NCBI GenBank assembly: GCA_017654855.1
Contig: CM030335.1
Span: 1-64,000, forward strand
Origin: Podospora anserina
Taxonomy: Eukaryota
Length of the DNA: 64,000 nucleotides
Reading direction: 5' to 3'
The position numbers and the translations under genes were made by a program. The notes beneath the pieces were generated by a model. It was not told the DNA's origin and ran no database searches. It saw only the letters and a list, made by a program, of their open reading frames with translations. How positions within the stretch are numbered: the stretch's first letter is position 1; each line of letters opens with the position of its first letter. Shown here in pieces: positions 1 to 27,440 of this stretch.

Positions 1-125
1 CTCCTAACCCTAACCCTAACCCTAACCCTAACCCTAACCCTAACCCTAACCCTAACCCTAACCCTAACCCTAACCCTAACCCTAACCCTAACCCTAACCC
101 TAACCCTAACCCTAACCCTAACCCT
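1..125 (+). repeat. Telomere, ~20 copies of CCCTAA (chromosome left end)
   Basis: Perfect (CCCTAA)n run starting at the first bases of the window; the canonical TTAGGG telomere of filamentous ascomycetes. Confidence 0.99.
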
Positions 126-2610
126 ATAGCGGGCAGCACTTCCTTTAACATAATCATAGCGGTTAGTCTTATCATATCATTATATATATACAGCGGTTGG
201 TATGCTTTTTTCTGTCGGTACTTTTTTTAATATATTTATAGCGGTTAGTTTTATTATATTATTATATATATATAGCGGTTGGTATGCTTTTTTCTGTCGG
301 TACTTTTTTTAATATATTTATAGCGGTTAGTTTTAATATAATATTATATATATATAGCGTTTAGTATACTTTTTACTATTAGTACTTTTTTTAATATATT
401 TATAGCGCTTAGTCTTAATATATTATTATATATATATAGCGTTTAGTATACTTTTTACTATTAGTACTTTTTTTAATATATTTATAGCGCTTAGTCTTAA
501 TATATTATTATATATATATAGCAGTTATTATGCTTTTTACTATTAATAATTCTTTTAATATATTTATAGCGGTTAGTCTTAATATATTATTATATATATA
601 TAGCGGTTAGCATGCTTTTTACTATAAATATAGCGTTTAGTATTTCTTATACTATATATCGAGCGCTTAGTTTTTATTTATTATATATATATATATTGCA
701 TTTAATATTTTTTTTTTTTATATATAGCGGTAAGTATTTCTTTATATATATATATATCGGTTAATATATCTTTAGATATATATATAGCAGTTGATTTTTA
801 TATACTTTTATATATATATATATATATAGCGGTTTAATACTTTTTTTACTATATAGATAGCGCTTAGTTTTAACGTATCTTTATATATATTTTTAGCGGT
901 TAGCAATTTTTTCTATATATATATAGCGGTCAGCACTTCTTTCTATATATATATAGCGGTTAATACTTCTTTCCATATATTTATAGCGGTTAATCTTAAC
1001 GGATCTTTCTATATATTTATAATAATTAAAATTTCTTTTTATATATTTATAGCCGTTAGCATTTTCTTTATATATATATATAACTTAATATTCCTTTCTA
1101 TATTTATATAGCGGTTAACACTTTTTCCTTTTTATATATACAGATTACTATTCCTTTCTATGTTTCTATAGCGGTTAGTTTAACCTACCCTTATATATAT
1201 ATCGCGGTTAACACTTTTTTCTATATATATATACGGGTTACTATTCCTTTTTATATTTCTATAGCGGTTAGTTTTAACCTACCCTTATATATATATCGCG
1301 GTTAATACTTTTTTCTATATATATATACGGGTTACTATCCCTTTTTATATTTCTATAGCGGTTAGTTTTAACGTATCCTTATATATATATAGCGGTTGGC
1401 CCCTTTTTCCATATATATATACTAGTTTATATTCCTTTCTATATTTATATAGCGGTTAATTTTAATTAATATATATATATATATATTTTTTACCCTTAAT
1501 AGTCTTTTTATTTATATATAACAATTAATACTTTTTTTATTTATATATATACCGGTTAGTATTCCTTGCTATATATAAAGCGGTAAATCTTTATATATAT
1601 TTATAGCGGTTAACACTATTTACTATATCTATATAGCAGTTAGTATTTCTTTCTATATATTTATAGTAATAAGTTTTAATAGATCTTTATATATATATAT
1701 AGCGGTTAGCGCTTCTTTCCACATATATATACGGGTTACTATTCCTTTTTATATTTATATAGCGGTTAGTTTTAACGTATTTTTATATATATATATAACG
1801 GTTAGCACTTCTTTTCACATATATATACGGGTTACTCTTTCTTTTTATATTTTTATAGCGGTTAGTTTTAACGTATCTTTATCTATATATATCGCGGTTA
1901 ATACTTTTTTCCATATATATATACGGGTTACTATTCCTTTTTATATTTCTATAGCGGTTAGTTTTAACGTATCCTTATATATATATAGCGGTTAGCATTT
2001 CTTTCTATATATATATACGGGTTATTATTCCTTTCTATATTTATATAGCGGTTAGCACTTCTTTCTATATATAGATACGGGTTACTATTCCCTTTTATAT
2101 CTATATAGCGGTTAGTTTTAACGTATTTTTTTATATATATATATCGGTTAGTACTTCTTTCCACATATATATACGGGTTACTATTCCTTCTTATATTTAT
2201 ATCACAATTAGTTTTAACGTATTCTTATATATATATAGCGGTTACTACTTTTTTTTATATATATATAGCGGTTAGTACTCTTATTACTATATATATAGCG
2301 GTTAATACTTTTCCTTACGTATATATAGCGCTTAATACTTTTTTCCATATATATATACCGGTTAATATTCCTTTCTATATTTATATAGCGGTTAGCACCT
2401 TATTTACTATATATATAGCGGTTAATACTTTTTTTTTACGTATATATAGCGGGTTTAATACATTTATACTTATATATAGTTATTAGCTTTTATATAGTTT
2501 TATATATACGTATAGTAATTCGTGTTCCCTCTTACTAATATATAGTAGTTAGTCTTTATATATCCTTATATATATATATAGCGGTTCGGGTACTTTCCTA
2601 CTTATATATA
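126..2610. repeat. Telomere-adjacent degenerate minisatellite (~30-34-bp monomers in higher-order units)
   Basis: Dozens of tatatatagcggttag / atatacgggttact cores. Period is ~82 bp at 159-570 and ~94 bp (three monomer types) at 1201-1295 and beyond. Heavily RIP-mutated. Confidence 0.92.
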
Positions 2611-2964
2611 ATAATTATATATTCTTTAAATTTTTATATTATAATATATAGTTTTTTTTCGTTTATATATATTAAGTATTAATATTTATATATATATATA
2701 TATATATCAATCTAACTTTATTTATTTAATTTACAAAAAATAATAAATTTTATATTTTAAATTTATTTAATTAATAATTTTTTTTTACTATATATTATAC
2801 CCTTATTTAATTACTTCTTTCTTTCTTTCTTTATTAATTATTTAATTTCTTTATACTATTTAAAAATATTAATAAAAAGTCTCTTTATATTTATTAATTT
2901 CTTTTTTATTATAAAACATTATTATTTTTTTCGTAAAATAGTACATTTAAAGTTTTATAAATAT

Positions 2965-3335
2965 ATTTATATAAAGTTCGGCTATATTTTTAAAAGTATA
3001 AATAATAATATAAACTTTTTAAAGAATTCGGGGGTTTATAGGTTATATATATAAATAGTTTATTTTTAATATTTTATTTTAAATACGATATCGACTTTTC
3101 TTTTTTTATATTTTATATATTATACGTATATAGGCTATTCTAGCCCTCTAATCAGGCCGTTCCGGTACTTATTATATAGCTTGCGAGCCTATAATATCTT
3201 TTCTTTTTCCTACGTATAGTATAGCTTACTAGTAAACTCTTATTATATATATATCTTTATAATATTATAATTAATTTTATATATTCTTCTACTATCATAA
3301 TATAATATTTTTCTTTATTTTTACTTTTATTTACA
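2965..3335 (+). mobile_element. Diverged solo LTR of family B (same family as 27640-28002), inverted relative to the other copies
   Basis: tagccctctaatcaggcc...ttattatatagcttgcgagcctata (3141-3193) is the reverse complement of the LTR-B core at 27771-27825. Ends are approximate. Confidence 0.75.
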
Positions 3336-3380
3336 AAATATATATATATATATATTTTTTTAAAAAAAAAAACCGTAATA

Positions 3381-6300
3381 TTACTCTATCAACTTTAAAT
3401 ATCTCGTATAAATTTCCTCCCACACCTTAACCCAAACTAATACCATCACAAAACACTTAATATCCAATACTTTTACCCGTATAAGTAACCGATATACTAC
3501 CTCCATCTCGTTATCCAATATAACCCCGTATTTCTAATAAAGTGCCTTAATATCTTCTTTAAACCAACCCAAACCCCTTTTTTTAACTATAATTAACCTC
3601 ATTATTAATTTTATTCCGTACGAATAATCCTTCCTAAACTTATAAAACGAACCCTTATCTTCCCTTAACAGTTCCTACCGCCTATAAAACCTTTTTAAAA
3701 CCCTATACTTATTATACCCCTAGAAACCTCCGTTTAACTTTCGTACGGTACTTAAACTTAAACCCCTAACCCTTAAAAGCCAATCGCTTAACTCTACGCT
3801 TTTTTTCTAAACCCGTTTATCCTTAAGTAAACCCTTTAATATATATAGCTTTTCTAATCCACTAAGAAATTTAGTTAATTATAAAGTATTTTATATAATA
3901 CCGTAGAATCTATAAACCGTTAATTACTAAAATTCGTACCGTATATATTCCTCCCTAAACTCGGTATACTTTAAAAAATAAACTATATAATTTACCTATA
4001 ATTATAAAAACACTTTAGTTATAACCTCTACGTTTCGTACAATATTTTTCCTCCTTTTCCGCTTTTTTATAATAATTTAACGTTACTTTTTTTTATTAAT
4101 AATTATATCGAAAACCTATTTATCTATAGTCTCCGGGATTACCGTATAATAAAACTTATAAGCCTCCTCCTCTATTCGGAATAACTCCGTACGAGCCATA
4201 CTAAAAAACCGCTCTTTATATAACCTATATAACTCCTCGCCCTCCTTATACCCGGCCCTATCTATCCGCCCGTTTATTACCCGGGAAAAAATAATCCTAT
4301 AATATAAATTATTATTCCGTACGAAATACTTTATTTTTAGTAACGTTAAATCTATAACTCCGGTAATTAATTTTCCGGCCGTACAATTCTTTATAAAAAA
4401 AATTACCGATTCGGCCTTTACTCCGTTTTTCCCGGCTCGTCCGCTTTCCTAAATAAAATCCTTTAATATCTTTAAAAGCCCAGTATAAAAAATATATCGT
4501 ACGTCTAAAATATCGATACTAGTACCTAGGGCAGACGTTACTATAATAGTACTACCGCTTTTAATCTACCTTCGTATAATCTTACTTTTCTAGATACTCT
4601 CTTCTACACTATTATAGTATACTAAATATTTAAGTAAGTATAAAATAACTTTAGTAAAATTAATCGAAGGGAAATAAATAATAACCCTCGTACGAGGATT
4701 ACGGTTACCGATAGAGTTAACTTACTAGTAAAGGGTTTAGAAGACAGCCTTTTAATCCTTATACTTAACTATAAAGTACTTAATATTCGACCGGAATATA
4801 ATAAACCGTACGATAGTTACCTTTTACGAATTAAAATATAAACTTTTATAAAACCCTAATAAGTCCCGAGGTAGGAAGGTAGCTATTAGGAAGAGTAATT
4901 ATATCCCGATTAAAGCTATATATTAGCCGATTTGCCGGAAGAGTAATCGAAATTCGTACGATAAGTCTAAAATAATATAATACTTATTAAAAATAATCCG
5001 GTTAAACTATTATCGTACGTTAAATTTATTAACGAAAGTCTTAAACGTTTTAATATTAAAGGCTTTCGGGGTTATAAAAATAATTTAATTAATCGAAACC
5101 TTTTTAAAACTCTAAATCGTATAACTAATCCTTAATTCTTTATAATACCGGGCTATATCTTTTTATAATACTATAAAAGGAGAAATAATAATAATAACCC
5201 CGTCCTTCGTATAATAAATTAAAAATAAAAAAATAATACTTTTTTTACTACCTATCCCGGTAATATAAAGGATTAAGCTAAACCTTTATACGATAGAAGT
5301 TAATACCTCGCGTTAATTACCCTTAAAACTAATATTAAAGTTATTAAATATCTAACGGAAATAGCCCTTAATATTAAAGCTAACTAGGTACCGGAGTCGT
5401 CCCTACCGTACAGTATAACGTTAGTTCTAAAAAAAATTAGTTTTAATTTACTAGAGGGTTAAAGTATCGTCCGAGCCGAAAGTAAATAACTAATACCATA
5501 ACTAACTAAACTTTATAAACCGCTATTATCGTACAGTATACCCTAACCTTCCCTAATTAATATACCTAGCATATACTATTCTAATAATCCTTTCCGAATA
5601 GCCGGTTTAAGCCGTAATAATAGGATTAAAGCCCTTATTTTCGTTATCCTCGTCGCAACTAAAATCAGACCTGTTATAATTATCGGATAACGGTATTATC
5701 TTATTTTTTAATAAACTCTTTAGAATAAAATAAATAAAAAATTAGCGGGTAATACCTACGGTAATATAACGTTAAAGCCAAATATTAATTTTAAATCCGA
5801 AGTAGCGCTTTATATACGATACAAGGGCCCGGTTAACTTTATTAGACGATTATTAATTTTTTAGGTTACCGGAGGATATACTTTAGCCGGCACCCCTAAA
5901 CTTAATATTTTTAAATAACCGTATAAATTTAAAATCCTAAAAGAATAAGGTAGGGGTAAAAGCTTTATTAAACTAATATTATAAATTAAAGTAAAAAAAG
6001 TGGATAAGCTAGAGGTATTATATAACGTTTATACCTAGCTCCCTTAGGAAATAATAATAAATAACTTTTAACTATCCGGTATAGCTTAACCCTTTATTAT
6101 ACCGTAATACGATTACGACTATACCGTACTAAATAAATATATTTTTAAACTCTTTAACTAATATATTATAAAACCTTATATTTAAAAGCTTTATTGTACG
6201 AGATAGTAACCCTATTAATAAATAAATAATAATAAAAAGGAGGGATCGAAGTTTATTTACCCGGTCTAGGTACGATTAGGCCTCGGTCGTATAATAAATA

Positions 6301-8087
6301 TAACTATCGCCCTATTTTCTTAATTAAAGTTAAGTAAGGGAAGGATTTTCGGTAATTCGTTATATAATTTAATTTTAAAGCCGCTAGAAATATATATTGC
6401 TAGGATCGGAAAGAAAGGAATACCTAATTTTATTTTAATTTATATTATCCTTTAAATTATCCTAAGGAATTTCCGGGATAGGAATACCCGATATTAATAA
6501 GAAAGTTAAGTCCTAAACTATACAATTAATTTTATTAATTAAAATATATATTATCTCGGCCAGAGCGTTAATAGTAATAGAGATATCCTAATATATAATA
6601 GTAATACTATTAAACGTAAACCTACTTTCGGATACCGTAAAGCTATTAATAATTATACTATACGTATGAGCCTCTAAAACCTAGTTTATTGGTATAAGGT
6701 AATTACTTTAATAAACTTTAATTATAAACCTCGAGACTTTAGAGCGGACGATATTAAAGAAATTAAGTTTTTTACCTACTTCTTTTAGCCGGGTAAATTT
6801 ATAAAATAAATATTATATAATAAAGGCTTTACCGAGGGTAACGATAGTAAAGAGGAGTAATATAAAGTTAGACGGGGTATATTACTTTCTATTATCCTTT
6901 AGGGCTATAATAGTTAGGGCAAAGAGGAAGGCACTTTCGTATAACGACTATAGGAAAGGATAATCTAAAAGTCTAATAAAAAAATCGATAAGTACTTAAT
7001 TTAATAACTTTCTTCCGGCCTTATTACTACCGTAATAAAACTCCTATATTATTTATATAATAGTCTCTAAACTTTTTATTTAACTAACGTTTAAATCGTA
7101 CGGTAACCAATCCTATTAATCCCAACTCTATATATAATAAATATACTTAAAAATCCTTTTTTAAATAAAAAAGTATTTCTATATTATACGAAGGACCAAA
7201 TTATTATTATTAAAAAGCTTAAAAGGTTTTTAATTAATCGTTTTTTTATTAATTTCGAATAAAACCGGGTAACCGACTTTATCGGATAACGACCTTACTA
7301 TTATATCGGTAATAACTTAATTAATCCTCTCCTAAATTTTATAGAGGACCGTAAAAGTAATTAAATTCTTACCGTTTAACTATCCTTCGTTTAAATTAAA
7401 AAAAGTCGAACGATATATAGTTTACCGGTCTAAAAACCTAAAGTAATATACTTAACCCATTCTATTTAATTAGGAATTTAAAGCTAATCGTCCCTTATTT
7501 ACTATAATAATTATTAATATTTATTAAAAAATTAAATTAATTATATAATAAAATACTATAAACTACTCTTTTCGTTTTTAGGTTTATTATACGAGGTTAG
7601 GACTTCCGGCTACCGGCTCCGTTAATCGTACCTTAAAATATTTAATAATTAACCGGCTTTTAAAAAACCGTTAATAATATATTTTAATTATTTAAAATCC
7701 CTAATATTATTAAGCTACTTTAATATTTCTTCCTTTTATATTAAGGTTAACCTAATTATACTTCGTATAATAATGCTCCTGTATCGCCCTTTTAGTCCGT
7801 ACGATATAAGCGTAGGCATCGCACTTTAATCTATTAAAAAAAGGCTTCCCTAGTTCTAAAATTAAGTTAATTACCGTAAAAAGAAATATAAAGTTTATTA
7901 AGTTTTATTATTTTCGAAAAACTATTAATAAATTATTATACTCTCGTACAATATTTAATTTATCTATAACTATAATATCTTTATAAGATATATAAAGATA
8001 AGTAAGTACTTTATCTATAAGAATAGTTACCTTATATTTCCTATAAATAAGAATTTGAAAGCGGGAGATATAAATAAAAGGGTCCAT
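3381..8087 (-). pseudogene. RIP-inactivated telomere-linked RecQ helicase (TLH): N-terminal Zn finger/DUF3505-like region, tyrosine-recombinase-like middle region, RecQ helicase core and Zn-binding region
   Basis: Literal minus-strand translation: ATG at 8087 (MDPFIYISRFQILIYRKYK); C2H2-like KCDAYAYIVRTKRAIQEHYYTKY (~7830-7760); motif I LYITGIGSKKS (~5270); Ia GVIIIISPF (~5200); II RIIFNKYY = RIVFDECH (~5000); III LFLIATFLP (~4895); V-VI IVTSALGTSIDILDVR...*ESGRAGKNG (~4550-4420); GYKEGEELYRLY = CEEGEELCxxC (~4250). Many TAA/TAG stops derived from CAA/CAG/TGG. Transcribed toward the telomere. Confidence 0.93.
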
Positions 8088-8219
8088 TCTAGTATAGTAT
8101 TAATAGTAATATAATAGTTATATACGATACGAGATATTATTAAATTAAAGTTTATTAATAAGTTTTTTTGGAAAAGGATACCCTATTAAAGGTGGAGTGG
8201 GTTACGTATAAGTAAATAA

Positions 8220-8910
8220 AGGTAGTAACGTGCGGTTACCGGGGTCTAGGTCCCGTACGATAGTCAGGGCGTGCCTAGGCAGGAAGGTAGTAAAGTGCGG
8301 TTGCTAGTCCCATACGATAGTTAGGGCGTGCCTGGGCAGGAAGGCAGTAGCGTGCGGTTGCCGGGGTCTGGGTCTGCAAAAGCAGACCTTTTCCTCTAAA
8401 GCAGGCCTTTTCTTCTAAATCCCTCGACAGGCTAGCTGTATAATAAAGCTTTGTTATTCCGATCCAGGCGTCTGGGTCCCGTACGGTAGGCAAGGCTCGC
8501 CTAGGCACGAAGGCAGTGGCGTACGGCTGCGAGGATCTAGGACTATTTCTTTTAACTACCTCGACTACCCAGCTATGTAACAGAGCCTTATTATTCCGAT
8601 CCAGGCGTCTAGGTCCCGTACGGTAGGCAAGGCTCGCCTAGGCGCGAAGGCAGTAGCGTACGGCTGCGAGGATCTAAGACCATTTCTTCTAACTACCTCG
8701 ACTACCTAACTATATAACAGAGCCTTATTATTCCGATTAAAGCGTCTGGGTACCGTACGATAGTTAGGGCATGCCTCGGCAGGAAGGTAGTAGCGTGCGG
8801 TTGCCGGGGTCTAGGTCTATAAAGCAGGCCTTTTCTTTTAAATCCCTCGATAGGCTAGCTATATAACATAGCCTTATTATTCCGATCAAGCCGTCTAGGT
8901 GCCGTACGAT
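8220..8910. repeat. GC-rich complex tandem repeats in the divergent TLH/DUF3716 intergenic region
   Basis: ttattccgat anchors at ~8454, 8591, 8728 and 8877 (periods 137, 137, 149). ~60-bp subunits cgtacgatagttagggcgtgcctgggcaggaaggtagtagcgtgcggttgcc occur at ~8255, 8310 and 8755. Confidence 0.9.
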
Positions 8911-9256
8911 AAGGTTTAATTAAAAGATATAGATATTTAGTTCCCGAACGGTTATATAATAAGCCTATCGTATAATAAAATAATATAAATATCGTATAAT
9001 AAAATAATATAAATATCGTATAATAGAATATTATATAATAATAAAAAAGTATTATATAATTCTTATACGGGGTTTATAGATTTATCGTTTATTAGTATTA
9101 TCGCCTAAAAAGTAATACAAAGATCTTAAAGCATAATAACTAAGCGATATATACGGTCTTAAAGTTTCTAGAGGTATAAGTTTAATTCTAATTAAAGCCC
9201 TTTTTTAATAAACTTTTAATCGTACAAATCAATTAACTTTTAAACAAACATTTAAA

Positions 9257-9775
9257 ATAGCTTTTATCCTTACCACCCGTAACTCGTATAAAATTATCGA
9301 CACTAACCAGCCTTATATTAGGAGCCTAATAAACAGCTTCTATATTAATATTAATATATATCTTTCCCGTACGATAATACTTAAACTAATAAATATATAG
9401 GAGACACAACAAATAATTTCGGCTCTACCATCGGCCAATATCAAATACGTCCCCGGCAAAATAAAGGGGGTTAAGGTACTAACTCGTCCGAGCTACCTAA
9501 ATACAATTTTAATCTAGAGCCGTAATTCCGTAGCTACCTCTCCCTATACTACCTATACTAATAAGCCTAATAGAGGGCCGTTTAAGGATTATCGCACGAC
9601 AGATAGGTACTAGGGTAGTACTTATAGTAACTGTAAGTGGAGGGATTACGGTAATAAATATAGCTTCTATACCGCTAAACAAAGCGGTACTAAAGCCGAG
9701 GAAAAGAGCGAGGGAAATAAGGGAACGGCGGAAGAGAGCTAGAAGCCTATAATTATTAGTAATTCCGATAATTAA
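9257..9775 (+). pseudogene. RIP-inactivated DUF3716-like small Cys-rich protein (~172 codons)
   Basis: Single frame reads RPSYLNTILI*SRNSVATSPYTTYTNKPNRGPFKDYRTTDRY*GSTYSNCKWRDYGNKYSF. De-RIPed this is RPSYLNAILIQSRG..PCxxC..GPFxxC..WGGACGNCKWRDHGxxCS, the recalled DUF3716 signature. Start codon ATG->ATA at 9257; acidic tail ending in TAA. Confidence 0.8.
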
Positions 9776-9819
9776 ATAAATCGTATAATAATAAAAATCG
9801 ATTAATTTTATATTTTTTA

Positions 9820-12570
9820 TTTATAATTCTATACCGTTCGTACAATAATATACTTTATACTATTTTATACAGCTCGTTCAGGCAATTTTAATAATATCTT
9901 TATTTTTTATATTAATAGGAGAAATCCCATCGGATCGTATAATTTACTTTTCTATCACCCAACCTCACTTTACTATCTACGTACATTACCAGCATACTTA
10001 TACCTAACTTCACATCTTTTACTTACAATTCCACACCACTTATACGATAATACACCTTATACTATTCTATACAACTCGTTTAATTATTTTTAATAATATT
10101 TTTACTTTTTATTTTAATATAAAAAATCCTATCGGATCGTACAACTTACTCTTCTATTACCTAACCTCACTTTACTATCTATATACATTACTAACATACT
10201 TATACCTAACTTCATATTTACCATTCACAATTCCACACCACTCGTACGATAATACACCCTATACTATTCTATACAGCTCGTTCAGGTAATTCTAATAATA
10301 TCTTTACTTTTTATATTAATAAAAAAAATCCCATCGGATCGTATAACTTACCCTTCTATTACCCAACCTTACTTTACTATTTACGTACATTACTAATATA
10401 CTTATACCTAACTTCATATCTTTTACTTACAATTCTACACCGCTCGTATAATAATATACCTTATACTATTCTATACAACTCGTTTAAACAATTTTAATAT
10501 TATCTTTACTTTTTATTTTAACGGAAGAAATCCTATCGGATCGTATAACTTACCCTTCTATTACCCAACCTTACTTTACTATCCACGTACACTACTAGCA
10601 TACTTATACCCAACTTCATATCTTTTACTTACAATTCCACACCGCTCGTACAATAATATACCTTATACTATTCTATACAGCTCGTTTAGGCGATTCTAAT
10701 ACTATCTTTGCTTTTTATTTTAACGGGAGAAATCCTATCGGATCGTACAACTTACTTTTCTATTACCCAACCTCACTTTACTATCCACGTACATTACTAG
10801 CATACTTATACCTAACTTCATATTTTTTACTTATAATTCCATACCGCTCGTACGATAATATACCTTATACTATTCTATACAGCTCGTTTAGTTATTTCTA
10901 ATAGTATCTTTACTTTTTATTTTAATAGGGGAAATCCCATCGGATCGTATAACTTACTTTTCTATTACCTAATCTCACTTTACTATCTACGTATATTATT
11001 AATACACTTATACCTAACTTTATATCTACCATTTACAATTCTACACCGCTTATACGATAATATACCCTATACCATTCTATGCAACTCGTTTAGGTAATTC
11101 TAATAGTATCTTTACTTTTTATATTAATGGGAGAAATCCTATTAGATCGTATAACTTACTTTTCTATTACTTAACCTTACTTTACTATTTACGTACATTA
11201 TTAATATACTTATACTTAACTTTATATTTTTTACTTATAATTCTATACCGCTCGTATAATAATATACCTTATACTATTCTATATAGCTCGTCCAGGCGAT
11301 TCTAATACTATCTTTACTTTTTATTTTAACGGGAGAAATCCTATCGGATCGTACAACTTACCTTTCTATTACCCAACCTTACTTTACTATCTACGTACAT
11401 TACTAGTATACTTATACCTAACTTTATATCTTTTACTTATAATTCTATACCGCTCGTATAATAATATACTTTATACTATTCTATGCAACTCGTTTAAGCG
11501 ATTTTAATAATATCTTTACTTTTTATTTTAATAGGGGAAATCCCATCGGATCGTATAATTTACTTTTCTATTACCTAACCTTACTTTACTATTTATATAT
11601 ATTATTAATATATTTATACTTAACTTTATATTTACTATTTATAATTCCATACCGCTCGTATAATAATATACCCTATACTATTCTATATAACTCGTTTAAG
11701 CAATTCTAATAATATCTTTACTTTTTATATTAATAGGAAAAATCCTATCGGATCGTATAACTTACCCTTCTATTACTTAACCTTACTTTATTATTTACGT
11801 ATATTATTAATATATTTATACTTAACTTTATATTTTTTACTTATAATTCTACACCGCTCGTATAATAATATACTTTATACTATTCTATGCAATTCGTTTA
11901 GTTATTTCTAATAATATTTTTACTTTTTATTTTAATAAGAGAAATCTTATCGGATCGTATAATTTACTTTTCTATTACCTAACCTTACTTTATTATTTAC
12001 GTATATTACTAGTATACTTATACTTAACTTTATATCTACTATTTATAATTCTATACCGCTCGTATAATAATATACCTTATACTATTCTATATAGCTCGTT
12101 TAAGTAATTTTAATAGTGTTTTTACTTTTTATATTAATAGGAGAAATCCTATCGGATTATATAATTTACCTTTCTATTACCTAACCTCACTTTACTATCT
12201 ACGTACATTACTAATATATTTATACTTAACTTTATATTTTTTACTTATAATTCTATACCGCTCGTACAATAATATACTTTATACTATTCTATATAGCTCG
12301 TTTAAGTAATTCTAATACTATCTTTGCTTTTTATTTTAACGGGAGAAATCCTATCGGATCGTATAACTTACCCTTCCATTACCCAACCTCACTTTACTAT
12401 CCACGTGCATTACTAGCATACTTATACCTAACTTTACATCTTTTACTTACAATTCCACACCGCTCGTACGATAATACACCTTATACCATTCTGTGCAGCT
12501 CGTCTAGGCGATTCTAATGCTATCTTTGCTTTTTATTTTAACGGGAGAAATCCCATCGGATCGTACAACT
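9820..12570. repeat. Tandem array of ~14 x 202-bp units
   Basis: The atcggatcgt anchor recurs every 202 bp from ~9929 to ~12555 (10131, 10333, 10535 ...). Copies differ mostly by RIP transitions. Confidence 0.97.
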
Positions 12571-12673
12571 GAATTCTTTAACGGATCCTACCCCCTATTT
12601 CTAAAGTGGGGCCTTTTTTTTGGTGCGCTTTTCAACGGATTGTACTACAATCCATCGGAGAATAACTAATAGG
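12571..12673. other. Array end cap (~103 bp) with palindrome GGATTGTA-C-TACAATCC, copy 1
   Basis: Non-array sequence immediately after the last 202-bp unit. Homologous copies lie at 17369-17470 and 27178-27279 with the same right boundary. Confidence 0.9.
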
Positions 12674-15600
12674 TATTATAGGGCTTTTAGATTTATTATT
12701 ATATTCTATAAGCCTTAAACTTAAAGGAAAAGGTATAAGCTTAATATTAATATTAAAGTATTTAACGGCTTTATTAATATAGGCTTTTTAATAAAGTTAA
12801 AAGTAACGATTTAGTTTATTACGTTCGATTTAAATATTTAAAAAATAGCGAGCTAGGCCGAGATTTTTAATATCGTAATAGTTATTTATTACTTTTTTTA
12901 AAATTTAAAGCTATAAATATTATAGGCTTATAAGTAAATAATTATTAACGTAATTAATAAAAAAAATTATATAATTCAAATAAAAATAAATAACTATATT
13001 TAAAATTAATAGCCTAAAACCTAGTACCCGGGCTATTATAAAAACCTTTTATTATTATAAGTAAAATACTTACTTAAGGCTATAAAAAAACTTTTTTAAA
13101 AATATAATTTAGTTTTTTATAGGGTCCTAGCTAGCTCTCTTAAGTAGGATTATAGCGGCTAAACTACTATAAGAAAACTCGGTTAGGCCCTACGGAAGTT
13201 TAATATATATATCGAAATCGGTTTCCGAATTTAAAAAGGTTTCTACGAAATTTATTTACTTAATATCCTAATCGAATACCGTAATAATAATTAATATAAT
13301 CCTTTAAATTAGAGGGCCTATAGTAAAAATATAGGTTTATAAAAAATTAATTTTTAAGGTTTATTAAAATCCCCGGGTAATTAACCGTACTTTATACTTT
13401 ATTATAATACCTTACGGGTTTTTCTTTTCTTTAAAAACCTAACGATTAATAATTAACCGCTTTTTAACCTTTAAACGATTAATAAAGTAAAAGGTTTTTA
13501 TTATAAAGAACTATTATATTTCTATAAATATTATTTATAATTATTAATCTTTATTAGGGTGCTTTAAAATTTATTTAAAGGTATTAGGTTTTAAAAATAT
13601 AGCCGTAAATTAAATTACTAAAGTTTTTAAGGACCTAGAGACTAAATAACTAATAAATTTAATATAATTTATTTCGTCGATAGGCTTAAACTCCTTACGT
13701 TATTCCCGAATTACTTAAGGTAGTAGGATCTTAATAGTAATAAAAGGTATTAGAATTCCAGGATCCGGTATTTAAATAAAGTCCTCTATAGGGGTTTAAA
13801 TATTTAATTTATTTTCTAAGTTATTAAACCGGTTTATTACTTTTAATAAATTAATAGAGTTCGGTAGCCTTATAAATTAAGTTTTAGGATTTTCGTAGAA
13901 CTTTATAAAGTTAATTTAAATAACTTTATTTAGGCTTAAGTAAATTAAGTAAGTTTAATAGTTAAAGATTATAAGGAATTAGCCTTTAATTCCTTTAGGC
14001 GCGAGTTTCTTTTTTAAAACCTAGCTTTTAATAAAAATATATATTATAACCTTAATATTAATAGTTTTATAATTTAAAAGGTTAAATCTATAAGTTAATT
14101 AGTTAGGAAGTAATTTATTATAAAAAGATTAATAAAGCGTAAGTTCTTTAAAGGATTATACTATTTTATTAATAATTTTAATTATAAATTAAATAATATA
14201 GTTCTAGAAAGTAAGCGGGAAGCTTAAAGTAAATATTATAGCCCTTAATCGGTTAAAAATAATATAAATAGAACGCTTTACTAAACTATTTTAGTTAGGG
14301 GTTTTAGAATTTAAAATATTAAAGTTAATACTTTTTTTTACGAAATAGGCCTTTAAAAGTAGGATTTTTTTTCCCCCGTTATAATAGAAGTGCCCTAGGT
14401 ATTTATAAAGGGAGTTTTTTAGGCTTTCGATTATTAAACGGGCTTCTTAAACGGTATTTTTTTTTAATTTTAGGGGCCGAACGAAACGGTAACGGGTCTT
14501 CCGATCCACTAAAATAAAGGCGTAAACCTTCTTCGTAAATAAAAAAAGTTTAATCGAAATAATATTTCCTTTAATCCAGCTTAAGGTAAATAAAGGGTTA
14601 TTAACGACTTACCTAAAGGGCTTACGAAGGATTTTTACGGTATTATAGCTCTTATAAATAAAATCCTTAAACCGGATTTTCTATAAATTAAATATTCCTT
14701 CGGTAATTAAAAAAGTTTTTTTTAAAAAAGTAAAGCCTATATAACTTAACCGTATATATGAAAAAATAGTAATCTCGATAAATACTATTAAAGGTTCTTT
14801 AAAAGACTTTTTAAAAGGCTTTACCGGTAAAATAATTAATATTTAATCCTTAATTCCCTCTAGAATTTTAGAGGTTTTAAATTCCTTAAGGATCGTAAGA
14901 ATCTTAAAATCCTTTAAATTACTAGAATTTTTAATATAAGCGCTATAATTATATTAGTAACTATATTTTCCGGGGCGGCTCTTTCCTTTAACTTCTAAAA
15001 AAAATCTAGATTTATCGAAGTTAAGTAGGGTAATAAGTTTTTTATTAATATCGAAAATCTTTTAATAAAATAAAGCTCCTTTAAAATAATAAAAGCACTT
15101 TTTATTTATAATATTTAATAAGAAATTTAAAATATAAAGGGTTTTAAAAAGTAAAACCGTAAAATAATAAACCTTTTCGTTCTTAATTCCGGTATAGAAA
15201 TAAACTTTTATAGTACTTTAACTTACTAGGCTTATAGGGCTACCCCTTATTTAAACCGAGCTTAGGTTTTTAAGTATTAAAAAGTTTATAAAAAAGTTTC
15301 TTTCGTTATATATATAAACGGTAGAGCCGGTATTAAAAAACTATATATTTCGAAGGCCCTTATAAACGTAGGTTATAGGGCTTCCTTTATTAAAGGAGGG
15401 ATCTTTTAAGATATTATAGAATCCTATATTAAAATTAAAGTTTATTAGGAAGGAAACCTCTATAGTATCCGCTAAAGGTAAAAAGTTTTATAAAAAATAT
15501 TTTTTAGATTTATTTTTTTTCTTTTTTTTTTTCGAGCCTCCCGAGCTTTTTAAATCTATAAAGCCTTTAGAGTTTTTTAAACCCCTTAAACCCCTTAAAC

Positions 15601-17224
15601 CCTTTAAAAATCTAGAATTTTTAGGTTTATTTTTAGGAGATTTATCGTTTTTTTAGGCCTTAAAGTGCTAAGACTATAGGGCTATAAAAGCTTAAGTAAT
15701 TAAAGTAATTAAGTTCCGGGTTTCTATAAGAAAATTATTTTAAAAAAAGGAAAGATTAAGTAATTTAGCCGGGCTTAAATACGTTTAATAACGAATTAAA
15801 GCTCTATAGCGTTTATATTACTATAGAAAATTATATTTTAAAGTATTTAAATAGTAATTAACTTAATTAGTTTCCTAAATAATTATATTTAAGCCCTTAA
15901 GCCGAAAAATAAAAGTATTAAATTTAATATTAAATTCTATTACCGTAAGGGAATTATTAAATTTTAATAAATAGTAAAATTTATAAAGTTTATTCCGAAT
16001 AATTAATTAAGTTAGGGTATATTATATTTATAAGTATAGGAAAATAGTAGCCGGAGAGTCCTCTGTTTCGATAGTTTAAAAGGGACCTTACTAAAGAGTA
16101 TTCCGGATAGTAAGGACTAGGTAAGCCTTAAGTATATTTATTAAAGTATTAGTAACTTCGGTAGGTTTATTAATAAAGTTTAAGATCCTTATAACTTTTA
16201 ATTAAATAATAAAAGCCTAAATTTATTATTAATAATTATTAAGCTTTAAAAGTTTATTTTTTTAATTAACTAGAGGGTTTATTTACTAAAGTCCTTTATT
16301 AAAAAAATAATAGCCGTAAGCGGAGTAGGAGGTATCGATAATAAAGAAGCGGAGGTAGGTATAGCCGAAAGTATTAGTATAAAGGAGTTTTTTAAACGAG
16401 GTACTAAGTTTTTAATAGAAACTTATAACGTAGTAATTTTTTTATTTTAACGAATAATTATATCTTTTAACTTTTTTATAAATTTATTAAACTAGACTTT
16501 AAAGTAGGTTTTTAATTAAGTAACGATTTACTAACTTAAAGCGGTCGGGTCGATATTTAAAGGTAAGTTAGGAAGGGGAGGGACGTTCCCTATCTCTTTA
16601 TTTATTATAAAAAACGAAGGTCTAAAAAGTAGGACGTTAATTAATAAATATAAAATTAAGTATTTTAATTTTAGGGCTTAGTAGCCTATAAGAATAGAGT
16701 TTACGGTAAAAAACCGCTATAGGAACGTAAAATAAAGGAATTTGCTAAAATTTAAATATAAGTCCGGGCTTATAATTTATTAAAATATATCGTCGGTAGG
16801 CTAATTATATACCTTCTAAGTAGGTCGGAAGTAATTACTTAAAGACTTTGGGGTTCTTGGACTGCGAGGTACGACGGTGTGAGGTAGTACCGAAGGAAGG
16901 CAAGTATAGGGAACTATGCCCTACAAAAGTATAGTAAACTAGTATATTGATTTTGATTATCTAACTTAAACTTAAAAAAAAAAAAGATTATTCTAAATAC
17001 ACTGGGAGGGGAGCCTTTTATAGGTATCCAAAACCTTTTTTTCCTCCTTATCAATCCCCACAACTTCTACCAGTTCAGTTAGCCACAGTAGCTTATATAA
17101 AAACTTTGTAGTTCCTTATAACCGCTATGGGCGTTATGGGCGCTATGGCTTGAAGCCTTTGAGTGCTGTAAGCCACGAGAAAGAACATACTGTAAAATCC
17201 ACAAATAAGTGCTGTATTTTAACA
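12670..17224 (-). mobile_element. Copia (Ty1) LTR retrotransposon family A, 3'-truncated, RIPed
   Basis: Reverse complement of 29334-~33888. 5' LTR at 16778-17224 (447 bp, ends aaca on +). PBS GGTTATGAGCCC-like at 16766-16777. Breaks inside RT at the cap junction, so RNase H and the 3' LTR are missing. Confidence 0.93.
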
Positions 17225-17470
17225 CTTAACTTTATATTTATTATTTACTATTCTACACCGCTCGTACAATAATATATCCTATATCATTCTATATAGCTCG
17301 TTTAGGTAATTCTAATAATATCTTTTTTTTTTATTTTAATAAAAAAGATTTTATCGGATCGTATAACTAAATTCTTAACGGATCCTACCCCTTGTTTCCA
17401 AAGTAGGGCGTTTTTTTTAGTGCGTTTCTCAACGGATTATACTACAATCTATCAGAGAATAACTAATAAA
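17225..17470. repeat. Remnant 202-bp unit plus end cap, copy 2
   Basis: cttaactttatatt...atcggatcgtataact followed by aaattcttaacggatcctacccc...acggattatactacaatctatcagagaataactaataaa. Confidence 0.92.
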
Positions 17471-17548
17471 TATTATAATTATCGTTAGGTAGGAAAAACC
17501 GTATTAACGACTTTATTATAATAAAGTTTAAAGGCTTTTTAGGGATTT

Positions 17549-20500
17549 TATTATAACCCTAGTACAGGACGGTTATAGGGCTACAGGAATAAAAGGCTAA
17601 TCGGGAAAACGTATAGGGGAGCTAATTATAGTAAAAGTAAAGTAATTAATGTAATTAAGGCACTAAGTAAATTAAGTAAAAGTAATTAGTGTAATTAAGG
17701 TACTAAGTAAACTAAGTTAAGGTAATTAATAACTTTAGGAGACTAATTACGGCTTAATATAAGGACTATATATACAGAGGAACTGGCTAATATAAATAAA
17801 TAGTTCCGTAATATATAATTTAAATTTATATTTACGGAATTTAGTATTTATATTAAAATATTTTATTATATACTATTTAGTTACACTAAATTAATTATTA
17901 GAAATTACCTTTAACTAGTATCCTTTTTAAAGGTTCTATATAGAGGTTCGTTATACGTTATATACTTACTTTAATTTTATTACGGATAAAATAAAGGTAT
18001 TAAGTTAACGCTATAGCCGGAAACGTTAATACTTAAAGGATTTCGACCCAACTTACTATTAATTAACTTCTCGCTCGTATTTAAAAACTTAAAGATAAGT
18101 TACGCCTTTTTTATAATACCTTTACGTAAAAGAACGCTATACTCTATTAGGAAATTAATATTTTACGTAAGGAGGAAAAGTATATTAAGCTCGAAGTACC
18201 CGATTATTATAAAGGCGTAAAGGGAAAGATAGGAGGGTTCCTAATTTAATTTAAGGCTTATTTTCGGTACTACTTTTTTAATTTTTTAAACGAAGAATTT
18301 TAGGTTATATATATTACGTTCTGGCTTAAAGATAAAGTACTTATTTAGTTTAAGCCGATTTTAGGAGATTATTTCGATAATAAGTACGACGAGAGGGAAG
18401 ATATTACGAAAAAGTATTTTAAGTTATATAAAGGTTTTAAAGAGAAGATTAAAGAGGTATTTAAGGAATACGACGAGGGTAAGCGTACTTAAAAGCGATT
18501 GGTTAATTTTAAGTAAACTCGATTTATTATCGATTACATTATAGTATTTAAGATAAATATATTTTATAGTATAATTAACGATAAAGGGTTAATATAATTA
18601 TTTTATAATAGGTTTAAAGAAAAAATTAAAAATAAGTTATATCGAATAGAGCGACCGGAGATTATTAACGAGTATATTATAATAGTAGTTTGTATTAACG
18701 ATCGATAATATTAGTGCCGTAAAGAGTGTAAGGGTATATACGTATAAAAACCCTATTACTTTAACGATAAAAGAAAGAAACGGCCGTACGGGATTTACGT
18801 TTCGGGGATTATATATATATGGTTTATAGAAATTAATATTATTTAATAATAAAAGCTGTAAAGCTAAAGTAGAAATAATTTTAAGTATTTTAATTATAGT
18901 AAAGTAAAATACTTTAAGAAGGACTATAGGGTATTTAAGTAATTCGGATAGAAAAGAAAGATTATAGTAATTACTATATTAAAGGACTAAGAATTATAAA
19001 GGTTATAATTATCGGGTATTAGTAAAGTAAAGTAAAGAACCGTTATTAAATATATATATAAAAAAATACTAAATATATAAAAGACGGAAGATAGGAGGAA
19101 ACTAAACGGATATAATTAAAAAATTTTATATTATTAAATAACCTAAAGTAAAAGGATACTTTTAAACGATATAACCGTTTAGGAAACGATTTATAGCTTT
19201 TTACGGAAACCGGTAATTTTTAACGGATTACGAACGGTATTTTCGAAGGTATTAGTGTAAAGCGAAAGTATAGGATAACGATCCGGTATTCGTTAGCGAG
19301 GTTATTACTATATAGGGAGGAGGTAAAAGAAATAAATATTTTTAAATTATAGCGTATTAAAAAAATATTTAAGCTATAATATTAATAAACGGTAATACGG
19401 AAACGAATTTAATTTTATTATAGTTCGTATACTAGGTTAGAATACTATAGAAAAAAAAGAAGGAATAGATTGTTATATAAAAACTATTTCTAATATAAAG
19501 AGTTTATAGAAAAATATTACTTTTAAATATTATAATTAAAAGAAAAATAACTTTAATTATATTCGATATTATAAATATAGGACCCTCGAAGGATATAATT
19601 TTAGGGTAATTATAATATAAAGATTATAATTTAAATATCGATTGGAGGGATAGTAATTATTTATAATTAAAAAAGCTTTAAAAGTATTTAATTAACGATA
19701 GGAGATTAAAAGTATATATAAAATAAAGTATAAAATAAATACCTTCTACGGTATTACTATAAAGAACCTAAAAAGTAATAGTATATTCTATCGATATAGG
19801 CGGTAAGATCAAAGAAATAAGGTTAACGACGTTAGTGGAAATATTAAAGGTTAATAAATATATTTATTATAATAATATAGAAAAAGGTAAGAAAAAGGCG
19901 GTACTAGTAAAATATTAAGGATACTTAGCTTTTACGGTTAAATATTTAAAGGGGCTTTTAAAGCGAAGACCGTAGAATTACGAAATTAAGTTAAAAGAAA
20001 GAGCTAAGCTACGGCTATTTAAAGTTTACTATACTAATAATAAATAAAGTAACGAACTACGGAAATATTTAAACGAAAATTTTAAAAAAAAATATATTAA
20101 GGAGTCTATATCGCTAATAAAATACCCCGTATTTTTTATACTAAAAAAAAATAATAATTTATAATTATATATAGATTATTATTAATTAAATAATAAAATA
20201 ATAAAAAATAATTATCCGTTACTATTAATATTTAAGTTACGAAGTTAATTAGTAAAGGCGTAATACTTTATATATTTAAATATATTTATCGAGTACGCTT
20301 ATATATAAATTAAAGAAAGAAATAAATAAAAAATAATATTTTATATACCTTATAATTATTTCGAGTATTTCGTAATACTATTTAAACTAATTAATATACC
20401 CGCAACGTTTTAATTTTTTATTAACTATACGATTCGGAAGTACTTCGATAAGATAGTAATATATTATTTTAACGATATTTTTATTTATTTACGTACTTTA

Positions 20501-23500
20501 AAGGAATATAAGTAATATATATAAAAGATATTTAATATATTATACAAAACTAAACTTTTAATTAATAAAAAGAAAATAAGTTTTATATATAAAAAATAAT
20601 GTATTTAGAATATTTAATATTACTAAATAAAGTTTATATAGAATTTAAGAAAATTATAGTAATTAAAAATTAGTTTACGTTATAATTATAAATATATATT
20701 AAAGAATTTTTAAGGTTTATAAATTTTTACTAGATATTTATTCGAAGGTACGTAAGTATTACGTAATTATTTAATTATTTAACTAAGAAGGACGTAGAGT
20801 TCCGGTAAAGGTAGGAAGAAAAGTAGGCCTTTTAGGAGCTAAAGGAGGCTATTTTAAAGGATTTAGTACTTAAATTATTAAACTTTAATCGACTGTTCGA
20901 GGTTAAAGTAAATATATTAAACTATACGATCAGTAAATAATTAAGGTAGCGAAACGACGATAGTAAGTTATATCCAGTAATCTTTTTTTCGAAGAAGCTT
21001 AAAGAAATACGTTAAAACTATTTAATTTATAATAAAAAGTTATTTATTATTATCGAAGTATTTAAAGAATAAAGATTATACTTTAATAATATTAAATATA
21101 AAATATAGGTCTATACGGATTATAAAAATCTATAATATTTTATTATTACGAAGGTCCTTAATATATAATAAATACGATAATTAAAGTTTCTTTCGGAATT
21201 TAATTTTTAAATTAATTATAAAAAGGGTTCGGAGAATACTAAAGTAAACGTACTTAACCGGCGAACCGACTACTATAAGGATATACTTAAAGAGTTACTA
21301 TTATTATTTAAAGAAACGCTAAAAGGTATTTTTAAATATTTATTTTAACCGTAAATAAAGTATTACGTAGTATATCGTAAGTAAGTTACTTTTAATAATA
21401 AATATTAAAGAAGGCTAGGTAACGATATTATAGAGTAATATTAGTAAAAAAAATTAAAGTTATAAGGTATTTAAAGGGATAGTTAAGAAAGATTATAATA
21501 TAAAAATCGAATGTACGTAATGCTAAATAATAAAATAATATTAATAATAAAAATTTACGGATCGAAGTTCGGAAAATATATAAGTATCGCGAAGATTATA
21601 AAAAAAATTAAGTAGTACTTTAATTAATTAAAGATTAAAGACGACGTTAAAGAAGCTATTTAGTTATACTATATATACGAGAAAATAAAAGTTACGAAGT
21701 ATAAGCCTTATAGATTTTTAAAGATATTATTAATAGTAAAACGATTATAAAGTTTAATTATAATAAACTTTATTATTAAATTACTAAAATTAAAAAATAT
21801 AATAACCGGCGTTAAATATAATAATATATTAACGGTAGTTAATAAGCTTACTAAATAAATATATTTTTTACTTTATAAAGAAACCTAATCGGTAAAGTAA
21901 TTAATAAATATAGTATTATAGTATATTATATTAATATATATATAATTAAAAAAATTTATTACGGACCGCGATATTAAATTCGTATCGAAATTTTAAAAAA
22001 TATTAATAACGAGGCTAAAGGTAGTAAGTAAAGCGTTATCGGCCTATTACCCTTAAATAAACGGTTAAACGGAACGGTTTAATTAAATTATAAAATAATA
22101 TTTACGGAATTATATTAATTTCGAGTAAAACGATTAAATTAAACTATTATTTATAGTATAATAAATATATAATATATTACTAACTAAAACGATTAAAGCT
22201 ATACTGTTTTTCGTAAACTTTAAATATAAAGTAGACCTATAGTAAAAACTAAATATAAAAGTATTTAGGGCTAGGGTTAAAGTAAATAAACTATATATAT
22301 TGTATAGTAAATTTAAATAAGAATTAAAATTTATAAAGGAAAAAATACGGAAATACTATAATATTAAAAAGTTTAAGGGACTTTACTTTAAGGGGGAAAA
22401 TATAATATTCTTTTCTATATATAATTTACGTACTAAAAGATTTAGTAAAAAACTAGACTATAGGAGAGTAGGCCTATTTAAGGTTAAAATAAAAATCTTA
22501 AAAACGGTATTCGAATTAAAGCTACCTAATACGATACGTTTATAGTTATATACTTTTTATATTTTACTTTTAAAACCTATATTACCGGTAAGTAAAGTTA
22601 ATATATAAGTAATAGCGGAGAACGAAAAAAAAGAATATAATATAAAGAAAATATTAAATTTACGGTTTAATAAAAATTAATTAAAGTATTTAATTAATTA
22701 ATTAAGATATCTAGCTATAAATAATTTATAAAAACTATAGGTATATTTTAATTACTTAAATAAATAAAAAAACTTTTATTAATAATATTTAAACCGATTA
22801 AAATTTAAGTAAAAGAAATAAGTTTTTAAATTACCGCTAAATAGTAATAATATAGAAATTAAAAAATTTTAATAAAAATCGAACCTATATTTATAATATA
22901 ATAATTAACGTACTATATATTATACTATAAAATTAAAAAATATAAAGGGAATTAAATATAAGTAGTACTATGCGCTTTAACTACTTTAAAAAAAGGAAAG
23001 CGCGCCGCTAGCGGTATTTTAAATAACGAGGAAGGAAGGACCGGCTATATTAAAATTAAGAGATAGGTCGTCCGGCAAAAACTAACTAGGCTAGTTTAAT
23101 ATATCGGAAGCTTAGTTAAAGGAAAAGGCTAAAGAAAAATTAATAACGGAAAAAACTTACATTTCTTTTTATTTTAGATCCTTAATTACTCGCTCCTTAC
23201 GAATAACTAAGCGACGGAATTTAATAATTAAAACACAATACTAAATATTTACTTACGAAAGTTTCGAAGTAACTTATAATATAACCGTATAAACCTATTA
23301 TTTATTAATATTTAATTTTTTTTAATAATATAGGGAAGCTATTAACGCGGAAATAAAGTTTAAAATATTATAGTCGGAGCGACCGGAATATATATAGTAA
23401 TTATATTTAGAAGAGCGTTCGGAAGTGCGGTAATCGGGGATATTAAGGGCTTCGTAGGAAGAATAGGAAAGTATTTCGTTACTGAAGATAAAAGTAGCGG

Positions 23501-26660: not shown

Positions 26661-27022
26661 TAAAATAGTAAGAAAATATATAAAATAATTATAATACTAT
26701 AAATATACTTTTAATAGGTCTCTAATAAATATATTTACGTAATAGTAATTCGCTTATAAGCCGTACTTTACGTAGGATAAAGAAAAAACACTATAGGCTC
26801 GCAGGCCATATAATAAGCACCGGATTAGCCTAATTAGAGGGCTAGAATTGCCTATACGCATATAAGGTATAAAATACGAAGAAAAATAAAAGTCGATGTT
26901 CTGTCTAAAATAAAATGTCCGAAGTAAACTACTTATATATATAGCTCCCCTGAACCCCTGAGTCTTCTGAGCGCCCCGCTTCCTTACTTATACTTTTAGG
27001 CCTATAGCCGTACCTTAAACTA
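26661..27022 (-). mobile_element. Solo LTR family B inserted in a 202-bp unit
   Basis: 362 bp homologous to 27640-28002; 4-bp TSD gtat/atat. Confidence 0.9.
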
Positions 27023-27440
27023 ATATATTTATACCTAACTTTATATTTACTATTAATAAATCTATAACGCTCGTACGATAATATACTTTATACTATTCTA
27101 TACAGCTCGTTTAAACAATTTTTATAATAGCTTTCTTTTTCGTTTTAGTAAGAAAAATTTTATTAGATCGTATAACTAAATTCTTAACGGATCCTACCCC
27201 CTATTTCTAAAGTGAGGCGTTTTTTTTAATGCGTTTCTTAACGGATTGTACTATAATCCATCGGAGAATAACTAATAGGATATTCGGCTATAAATAATTT
27301 ATAAGAATTAAAAGTAAATTTTAATTATTTTAATAAATAAAAAGTATTTTATTAGTAATACTTAAAACGATTAAAGCTTAAGTAAATAAAAGATTAGTAT
27401 TTAGGTTTATAGGTAATACTTATAAATCTAAATACCGAAA

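Follow-up and report, generated by a model that had tools for sequence, protein, structure and literature searches.

A RIP-degraded DUF3716 pseudogene beside a TLH-type helicase relic near a chromosome end of Podospora anserina

Positions 1 to 64,000 of Podospora anserina contig CM030335.1 (GenBank assembly GCA_017654855.1), the whole 64,000-nucleotide stretch analysed here and hereafter called the window, begin at a chromosome end and carry two gene relics that point away from each other across a spacer of 1,169 bp. The relic at 3600..8087 on the minus strand is of TLH (telomere-linked helicase) type, and the one at 9257..9775 on the plus strand is assigned by homology to the DUF3716 family; both are decayed by repeat-induced point mutation (RIP). 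Our best overall explanation, to which we give a probability of about 0.5, is that the DUF3716 pseudogene was the divergent partner of the TLH gene in one amplified subtelomeric unit and would have acted as a targeting helper of the helicase.

Results

A DUF3716 gene relic lies 9 kb from the telomere

An initial annotation, made from the DNA letters alone, had proposed a cysteine-rich, DUF3716-like gene relic of about 172 codons. The plus-strand frame 9257–9775 spans 173 codons including the stop and holds five stops, one of them intronic and one the natural stop, whereas RIPed DNA of the window averages 16.3 stops per 173 codons (519-nt windows). Windows of 519 nt with at most three stops make up only 0.1% of 81,762 and fuse into five regions, two of which are the helicase and 9212–9739, the frame of the relic. 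When the relic was searched with phmmer against 1.84 billion representative proteins, 75 matches were found at E ≤ 1e-3, three of them at E ≤ 1e-10, the best being P0007 (E 9.4e-14; P numbers denote database proteins). All 75 carry PF12511 (DUF3716), 74 of them reaching the 22-bit gathering score, and hhalign of the relic against a 35-sequence profile of its matches gave a probability of 99.4% (E 3e-21, 95 columns). With hmmscan, neither the translation read through its stops (written as X) nor any of the six frames of 8087–9790 matched a Pfam family at E ≤ 10, which is expected because this copy has lost five of its six conserved cysteines; a word-indexed protein search with the relic gave no match either. 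The DUF3716 assignment is thus borne out by homology and not by a direct Pfam match: the relic belongs to the family on the strength of its relatives, though it fails the family's own hidden Markov model. No second relic copy was found in the window by blastn, tblastx, or tblastn.

The closest relative is a two-exon gene at metagenome locus L001 (L numbers denote such loci), whose product is 96.6% identical to P0012. Alignment to that gene and to P0010 and P0011 divides the relic into exon 1 (9257..9349, plus strand, 31 codons, with the start decayed to ATA), an intron (9350..9400, plus strand, 51 nt, containing one in-frame stop), and exon 2 (9401..9775, plus strand, 124 codons plus stop). 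The L001 intron directly follows codons for C-T-N and that of the relic follows the equivalent (C/Y)-(T/I)-N codons, and the 3′ ends of the two introns are alike (...ACTAATAAATATATAG in the relic, GCTAACAAAGACATAG in L001). ATA GCT at 9257 pairs with the Met-Ala start of L001, the rest of the first five residues being identical or altered by C>T-type changes, and at the other end ...IIISNSDN-stop pairs with ...VVISSDEE-stop of the relative; the start and length first proposed are therefore sustained. With the intron removed, the relic has 155 codons, three premature stops, and no frameshift, and an RPSYLN..LIQSR block and the Cys-rich DUF3716 core fall in exon 2 at about 9485–9670. Compared with the PF12511 proteins of filamentous ascomycetes, of which P0007 and the L001 gene/P0012 are nearest, the relic is collinear over the 95 columns and shares the RPSY(L/I)NA.LIQSRG block, GPF, the C.NCKWRD motif, and the Cys spacing, and with the L001 gene also the intron site and a hydrophobic-acidic C-terminus. 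Unlike them it is a pseudogene with a lost start, three premature stops, and tyrosine codons at five of six Cys positions.

The gene was killed by RIP alone, to judge from its sequence, through loss of the start codon, three premature stops, and five Cys>Tyr changes. The relatives conserve 42 columns, of which the relic matches 23 and departs from 19. Changes of the C>T or G>A kind can account for 17 of these 19, and 12 of the 17 fall in strict CpA/TpG context. The cysteine pattern tested was C-x2-C ... GPF-x2-C ... C-x-N-C-K-W ... C, in which the ancestral cysteines would have occupied six columns, inferred rather than observed in this copy; five are now TAT (9545, 9554, 9590, 9623, and 9659), each one TpG>TpA step from TGT, and the sole surviving conserved Cys codon is the TGT at 9632. 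"Cysteine-rich" is thus apt for the probable state before RIP and no longer for the present one. GPF, N-C-K-W-R-D, and the spacing of the motif are still intact, two conserved His columns now read TAC, and the premature stops lie at 9515, 9611, and 9740, that at 9515 being a conserved Gln turned TAG. The window copy is a dead pseudogene without present function. The claim that it is as heavily RIPed as TLH does not hold: its GC content is 37%, with 3.3 CpA+TpG per 100 nt and three premature stops in 155 codons (1.9 per 100), against 28%, 1.05 per 100 nt, and 6.6 stops per 100 codons in the TLH relic; unmutated genes of the window have 15 CpA+TpG per 100 nt.

The divergent neighbour is a TLH-type helicase relic

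The relic at 3600..8087 (minus strand, 3′ end approximate) points toward the telomere and is RIP-degraded, with 101 stops in 1,529 codons. It is assigned to the OrsD/DUF3505, DEAD, and Helicase_C type by comparison with an intact helicase of 1,461 aa at locus L060, which has all three domains and whose residues 376–1205 match 7004→4398 (E 2e-35), all within one frame. From 7004 back to the ATG at 8087 there are 361 codons, which fits the N-termini of the homologues, and the ATG is collinear with their starts. Helicase_C was found in the minus frame from this ATG at E 0.0023 and 18.6 bits, under the cut-off of 23.5, and no Pfam family matched the OrsD/DUF3505 N-terminal region of the relic. Against four intact OrsD N-termini hhalign gave a weak, collinear alignment of 90–161 to 90–162 (probability 4.9%, E 0.008), too faint to be counted as N-terminal support. 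By its similarity and setting, the neighbour is a RecQ-like TLH-type helicase relic, subtelomeric and multicopy.

The spacer between the two start codons (8088..9256, 1,169 bp) agrees with the distance of 1.17 kb and the opposite direction first noted. It contains a GC-rich (51%) block at 8200..8910 built of 137-bp and 57-bp repeats, the copy number of which differs among copies and strains, and two TTAGGG sites that could be RIP products of TCAGGG. The block has been spared much of the RIP decay. Tandem repeats beside the TLH-linked DUF3716 genes of L060, L063, and L073 share nothing with the 137-bp array.

Helicase, spacer, and relic are all multicopy

Contigs from four sequencing runs that carry the same species label and come from four studies were compared with 2700–9800 at ≥80% likeness. 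All 30 bins of this interval were covered in each run, by 1,123 to 3,335 contigs per run, most of them at 80–95% likeness, and multicopy cover ran unbroken from the helicase across the spacer to the relic in all four. About 97% of the differences among contigs are transitions (1,358 transitions versus 39 transversions in run X1). Alternative bases were carried by 3–22 contigs at the listed positions of the helicase, by 6–21 in the AT-rich part of the spacer (9147 and 9225), and by 7–21 in the relic (9334, 9528, 9595, and 9743); multiplicity in the relic is at least that in TLH. The repeat block at 8200–8910 had the highest summed depth in all four runs and many copy-number joints. Many diverged contigs differing by transitions imply many independently RIPed copies, and helicase, spacer, and relic are therefore all multicopy in the species.

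DUF3716 genes adjoin TLH and other element genes in other fungi

A profile scan of metagenome contigs confirmed 434 of 605 candidate DUF3716 stretches, and the best 80 loci were analysed: 174 open reading frames (ORFs) of ≥200 aa in them were scanned against Pfam, and the loci were also searched with helicases. They form 58 groups at 95% DNA identity, of which 40 have ≥2 kb of flank, and the relic matches 78 of the 80 by tblastn. An OrsD-DEAD-Helicase_C helicase adjoins the DUF3716 gene in five distinct loci (L001, L017, L060/L058, L063, and L073), that is, in 5 of 58 groups, or 4 of the 40 with sufficient flank, L001 falling outside these. At L073 the two genes are divergent, as in the window, with about 2.4 kb between their first ATGs; at L017 and L063 they are in tandem on the same strand with DUF3716 upstream of the helicase; and at L060 (L058 is the same element) and L001 they are convergent. 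The idea of a two-gene module accordingly gains the adjacency in five other loci, but its head-to-head layout recurs at L073 only. The anticipated co-occurrence with TLH is likewise present among the 80 loci; telomere repeats were found in none of them. In a 104-column tree the relic, on a long branch, pairs with the TLH-linked L001 gene (SH-like approximate likelihood ratio test support of 96).

A mobile-element gene stands next door in 24 of the 40 informative groups. The neighbours are a hAT transposase (7/40), a large RVT_2 ORF (5/40), TLH (4/40), Gypsy (3/40), NDC10_II (2/40), an rva_4 integrase (2/40; the integrase-core gene is paired with DUF3716 at L018 and L051), and DDE_1 (1/40), and 16 of the 40 groups have none of these types. 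DUF3716 is thus not a partner specific to TLH. We read the clade as an accessory gene that turns up repeatedly in the mobile or multicopy DNA of fungi, be it hAT, Crypton-like, long terminal repeat (LTR), integrase-type, or TLH.

Several of these associations have a recognisable form. The hAT pairing comprises 11 loci (L003–L008, L012, L053, L061, L064, and L072) in seven distinct groups, where the DUF3716 gene lies a few hundred bases from the transposase gene, mostly convergent with it, and these loci look like a two-gene hAT family. A 3.84-kb unit at L013:9470–13310, found also at L026, L031, L036, and L045, has the DUF3716 gene convergent to an NDC10_II gene and recurs at about 95% identity in different surroundings; as we take the NDC10_II domain to be derived from Crypton recombinases, the unit is probably Crypton-like. 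The copies have decayed in RIP-like fashion, with changes such as W>stop and G>E, and their ratios of nonsynonymous to synonymous polymorphism (pN/pS) of 0.5–0.98 reflect decay after insertion and are uninformative about function. At L032, L035, L033, L041, L071, and L080 a single ORF of 1,560–1,740 aa always adjoins the DUF3716 gene, matching RVT_2 weakly and neither rve nor gag at E ≤ 1e-5. Loci L032 and L035 are related by circular permutation (A-B-A, with DUF3716 in A), which means either that a terminal repeat contains the DUF3716 gene or that the elements stand in tandem.

The DUF3716 family shares a folded core and an acidic tail

An AlphaFold model of P0010, built from a 35-row alignment, is confident over residues 11–130 (block mean pLDDT 85–96). 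Compared with solved structures, it gave a best Foldseek E of 1.4 and, in a wide VIA-align search, no match with Z ≥ 2. Beyond the DUF3716 domain with its C..CKW motif the tails are acidic, and a hydrophobic core adjoining an acidic/serine run occurs in 26 of 75 tails, as against 3.8 ± 1.7 (maximum 8) in 200 shuffles; examples are VVISSDEE, IIVVSSDEE, and VIVLSDDE, and many other members end in ...NPIVL. The relic retains the hydrophobic-acidic end. We take these tails to resemble SUMO-interaction motifs. Five database proteins (P0008, P0009, P0016, P0018, and P0019), among them the second- and third-best matches of the relic, have Tyr at conserved Cys columns; they are gene models built on RIP-affected copies, a sign that the clade is often multicopy in other fungi as well.

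The subtelomeric setting of the two relics

The window starts with a telomere repeat, (CCTAAC) × 20.7 at 3..126 by Tandem Repeats Finder, with minus-strand TTAGGG matches at 8–121, followed by short-period arrays up to about 2600. The latter (144–2617) have nested periods of 30, 60, 96, and 250 bp, and each 30-bp unit holds ...TAGCGGTTAG...; a similar GCGGTT(G/A)C core is found in the repeats of the spacer between TLH and DUF3716. Bases 1–44000 are AT-rich, with GC of 19–37% per kb except for 43% at 8–9 kb, and have RIP indices of 1.3–2.2 (TpA/ApT) and 0.1–0.6 ((CpA+TpG)/(ApC+GpT)), as compared with 0.59 and 1.32 in the gene-rich 44–64 kb.

A 202-bp tandem array of 13.7 copies (9803..12570) begins 28 bp past the stop of the relic and marks the right limit of the assignable TLH/DUF3716 unit. 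Its source is the LTR-like terminus of a Copia-like element, and its units resemble 17215–17477 and 27019–27284. The Copia-like element occupies 12669–17224, with an RVT_2 relic at about 12748–13471 on the minus strand and an inverted second copy at 33887–29334 (87% identity). That the DUF3716 relic is part of this right-hand element was considered and set aside as the main explanation, the element having LTR-like ends of its own 2.6 kb away. On the other side, past the TLH 3′ end, 2937–3321 matches 26662–27054 and 40412–40714. The interval 8088–9803 and the sequence adjoining it yielded no relic of a transposase, integrase, or recombinase, the first 1–13 kb of the window yielded neither a Helitron nor a captain-type recombinase nor any other gene of a large element, and the large RVT_2 ORFs that accompany DUF3716 at loci L032–L080 have no tblastn match in the window.

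Farther in, a RIPed Gypsy-type polyprotein relic (20057–22665, plus strand) matches RVT_1/RNase H/integrase ORFs of L009, L015, and L023. Directly behind the RIPed subtelomere lies an unmutated secondary-metabolite cluster (43873–63069), which has a nonreducing polyketide synthase (SAT-KS-AT-DH/PT-ACP-ACP, thioesterase) and also contains two short-chain dehydrogenases, FAD monooxygenases, an Old-Yellow-Enzyme-type reductase, and an AMP-binding/NAD_binding_4 enzyme that is carboxylic-acid-reductase-like. Such a cluster behind RIPed DNA marks the organism as a filamentous ascomycete.

Discussion

A two-gene unit and its possible working

Two published proteins bear on what the intact gene could have done. 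Recombinant Neurospora crassa NCU05718, a protein without an annotated DNA-binding domain, directly binds double-stranded TTAGGG according to the accessible part of PMC4650311, and the accessible part of PMC10776026 ascribes a DUF3716 domain to Fusarium graminearum PSC58 and calls it the orthologue of NCU05718. The gene in the window would have encoded a small DUF3716-family protein of about 155 aa; in this family a cysteine-rich module, which presumably binds zinc, precedes an acidic tail. It would have stood divergent from the TLH gene at 1.17 kb in one subtelomeric repeat unit, present in roughly 5–20 copies in the species, and RIP would have destroyed both genes because the unit was multicopy. 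In a live unit the spacer might serve as a bidirectional promoter, and the DUF3716 protein could be a DNA- or chromatin-targeting partner of the helicase that recognises telomeric or element repeats, as NCU05718 does TTAGGG, and docks through its hydrophobic-acidic tail motif. That the two genes formed one amplified unit is what we infer from their common multiplicity. The zinc and DNA binding, the binding to the arrays, and the shielding against silencing that were first suggested would be speculative properties of the protein, for which TTAGGG binding by NCU05718 is the one outside support.

Several observations weigh against this explanation. RIP saturation is about three times lower in the DUF3716 relic than in TLH, and in run X3 the relic has about 1.5 times the summed depth of TLH, depth not being equal to copy number; some copies of the relic may lie outside TLH units. 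Among the contigs listed, which are 200–900 nt long, none bridges TLH and the relic, and linkage in other copies is for that reason drawn from their similar multiplicity; of the presumption that the relic was multicopy together with TLH, the multiplicity of every part stands in all four runs, and physical linkage of the genes is seen in none of the contigs listed. Across the five TLH-linked loci, orientation and spacing vary (one divergent, two tandem, two convergent), their DUF3716 genes do not form one clade (five changes for five rows, the same as in shuffles), and the 5 of 58 groups with a TLH neighbour are a raw count. TTAGGG outside the telomere is not enriched in the window (69 matches versus 77 expected). 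The confident P0010 model matched no solved DNA-binding fold, which does not show that its fold is new, and no longer, fused DUF3716 proteins were found, itself weak evidence. Finally, NCU05718 is a putative DUF3716 protein by its stated orthology to PSC58 (PMC10776026), and its closeness to the clade of the relic would be conjectural.

Alternative explanations

The main rival to a functional partnership is accumulation: a DUF3716 gene from its own or another mobile unit would have landed beside TLH among the repeats of a subtelomere, and the usual segmental duplication of chromosome ends would then have copied both without any functional link. We consider this unlikely but a serious contender. 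It would suit the finding of DUF3716 relatives beside at least six other kinds of element gene, more often than beside TLH, as well as the variable layout and scattered tree positions of the TLH-linked genes, the lighter RIP and possibly greater abundance of the relic, and the LTR-derived array that abuts its 3′ end. In the interval 8088–9803 and at its borders, nevertheless, no transposase, integrase, or recombinase relic was found; the Copia-like element has LTR-like ends of its own and stands 2.6 kb off, and the RVT_2-type ORFs that go with DUF3716 elsewhere are unmatched in the window. Multicopy cover moreover runs from TLH to the relic with no gap at the spacer, the closest relative at L001 is also TLH-linked, and five independent TLH adjacencies in 58 groups would seem to exceed chance for a family of a few dozen copies per genome. 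A more sweeping proposal, which we hold to be doubtful, turns the breadth of these associations into the explanation: DUF3716 would be a shared accessory factor of unrelated selfish DNA (hAT, Crypton-like, IS3EU-type, and LTR elements and TLH units), its small cysteine-rich module reading element or telomere repeats and its tail, akin to a SUMO-interaction motif, linking the element to chromatin pathways of the host so as to target it or to blunt silencing. TLH plus DUF3716 would then be no host helicase family but an element complete in itself and targeted to telomeres.

It is improbable that TLH and DUF3716 are both cargo of a larger mobile element, Helitron-like for example, of which the apparent module would be a fragment. 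All 14 TLH copies of one Botrytis strain are flanked by a Helitron-like element, as stated in the accessible part of a preprint (bioRxiv 10.1101/2022.03.07.483234), and the boundaries of the unit in the window are undefined, with more repeats flanking the TLH 3′ end; yet neither the stretch at 1–13 kb of the window nor the metagenome loci with both genes, short as these are, yielded such a large-element gene. RIP spreads into sequence adjoining repeats, and the relic is less mutated than the TLH flanking it, as would be expected of a single-copy host gene mutated only by RIP leaking from neighbouring repeats. This origin is contradicted by contig multiplicity, the positions of the relic lying in four of four runs under 7–21 distinct contigs of 80–95% likeness with transition differences, and we regard it as very improbable. 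An open frame arising by chance in AT-rich DNA, with a fortuitous motif, would account for the empty results of the direct Pfam scan and the word-based search, but is refuted by the phmmer E of 9.4e-14, with 75 of 75 matches in one family, the hhalign probability of 99.4%, and the common intron position, which leave it next to no credibility. The partnership in one amplified unit remains our preferred explanation at the probability given above.

Comparison with known systems

The likeness of the relic to NCU05718 and PSC58 consists in membership of the same Pfam family, as the accessible part of PMC10776026 has it, and in a location 9 kb from a TTAGGG-type telomere and beside TLH; NCU05718 and PSC58 differ in being single genes of the host that serve a cellular function, whereas the relic was a multicopy subtelomeric gene, and its likeness to them comes from publications. 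A parallel in genetic arrangement is REP9 of Zymoseptoria tritici, a class II IS3EU-type transposon that, in the accessible part of PMC8232023, has four genes, two of them with DUF3716, so that in both cases a DUF3716 gene is a nontransposase passenger of a multicopy element. The partner in the window differs in being a TLH helicase and not an integrase or transposase, and the unit is telomere-linked and RIP-dead.

TLH regions of Magnaporthe, Fusarium oxysporum (TLHcr), and Botrytis (BcTLH) are described, in the accessible parts of PMC12857005 and bioRxiv 10.1101/2022.03.07.483234, as multicopy subtelomeric units around a RecQ-like helicase with C2H2-type fingers at its N-terminus; the units are often RIPed and have tandem repeats at their flanks. 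The window shares with them the multicopy, subtelomeric, RIPed helicase and the tandem repeats. The accessible text of the same two sources names one gene in each unit and makes no mention of a divergent second, DUF3716, gene. The DUF3716 family, TLH units, RIP, and one published transposon with DUF3716 genes are already known; as far as our literature searches reach, two points are new, namely that a DUF3716 gene recurs as a companion of TLH and that its associations extend so broadly over unrelated kinds of element. Among chromosome-end regions that contain TLH we would presumably also place the yeast Y′ elements.

Significance

TLH genes are a long-known and unexplained feature of chromosome ends and are usually described as lone genes. 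Since the window copy is dead, the interest lies in the pattern and not in the locus. A recurrent second gene offers a concrete handle on TLH, one relative of that gene being a reported TTAGGG binder and others riding in transposons. It makes testable both the role of DUF3716 and the view that TLH units may be autonomous selfish elements with a targeting factor of their own.

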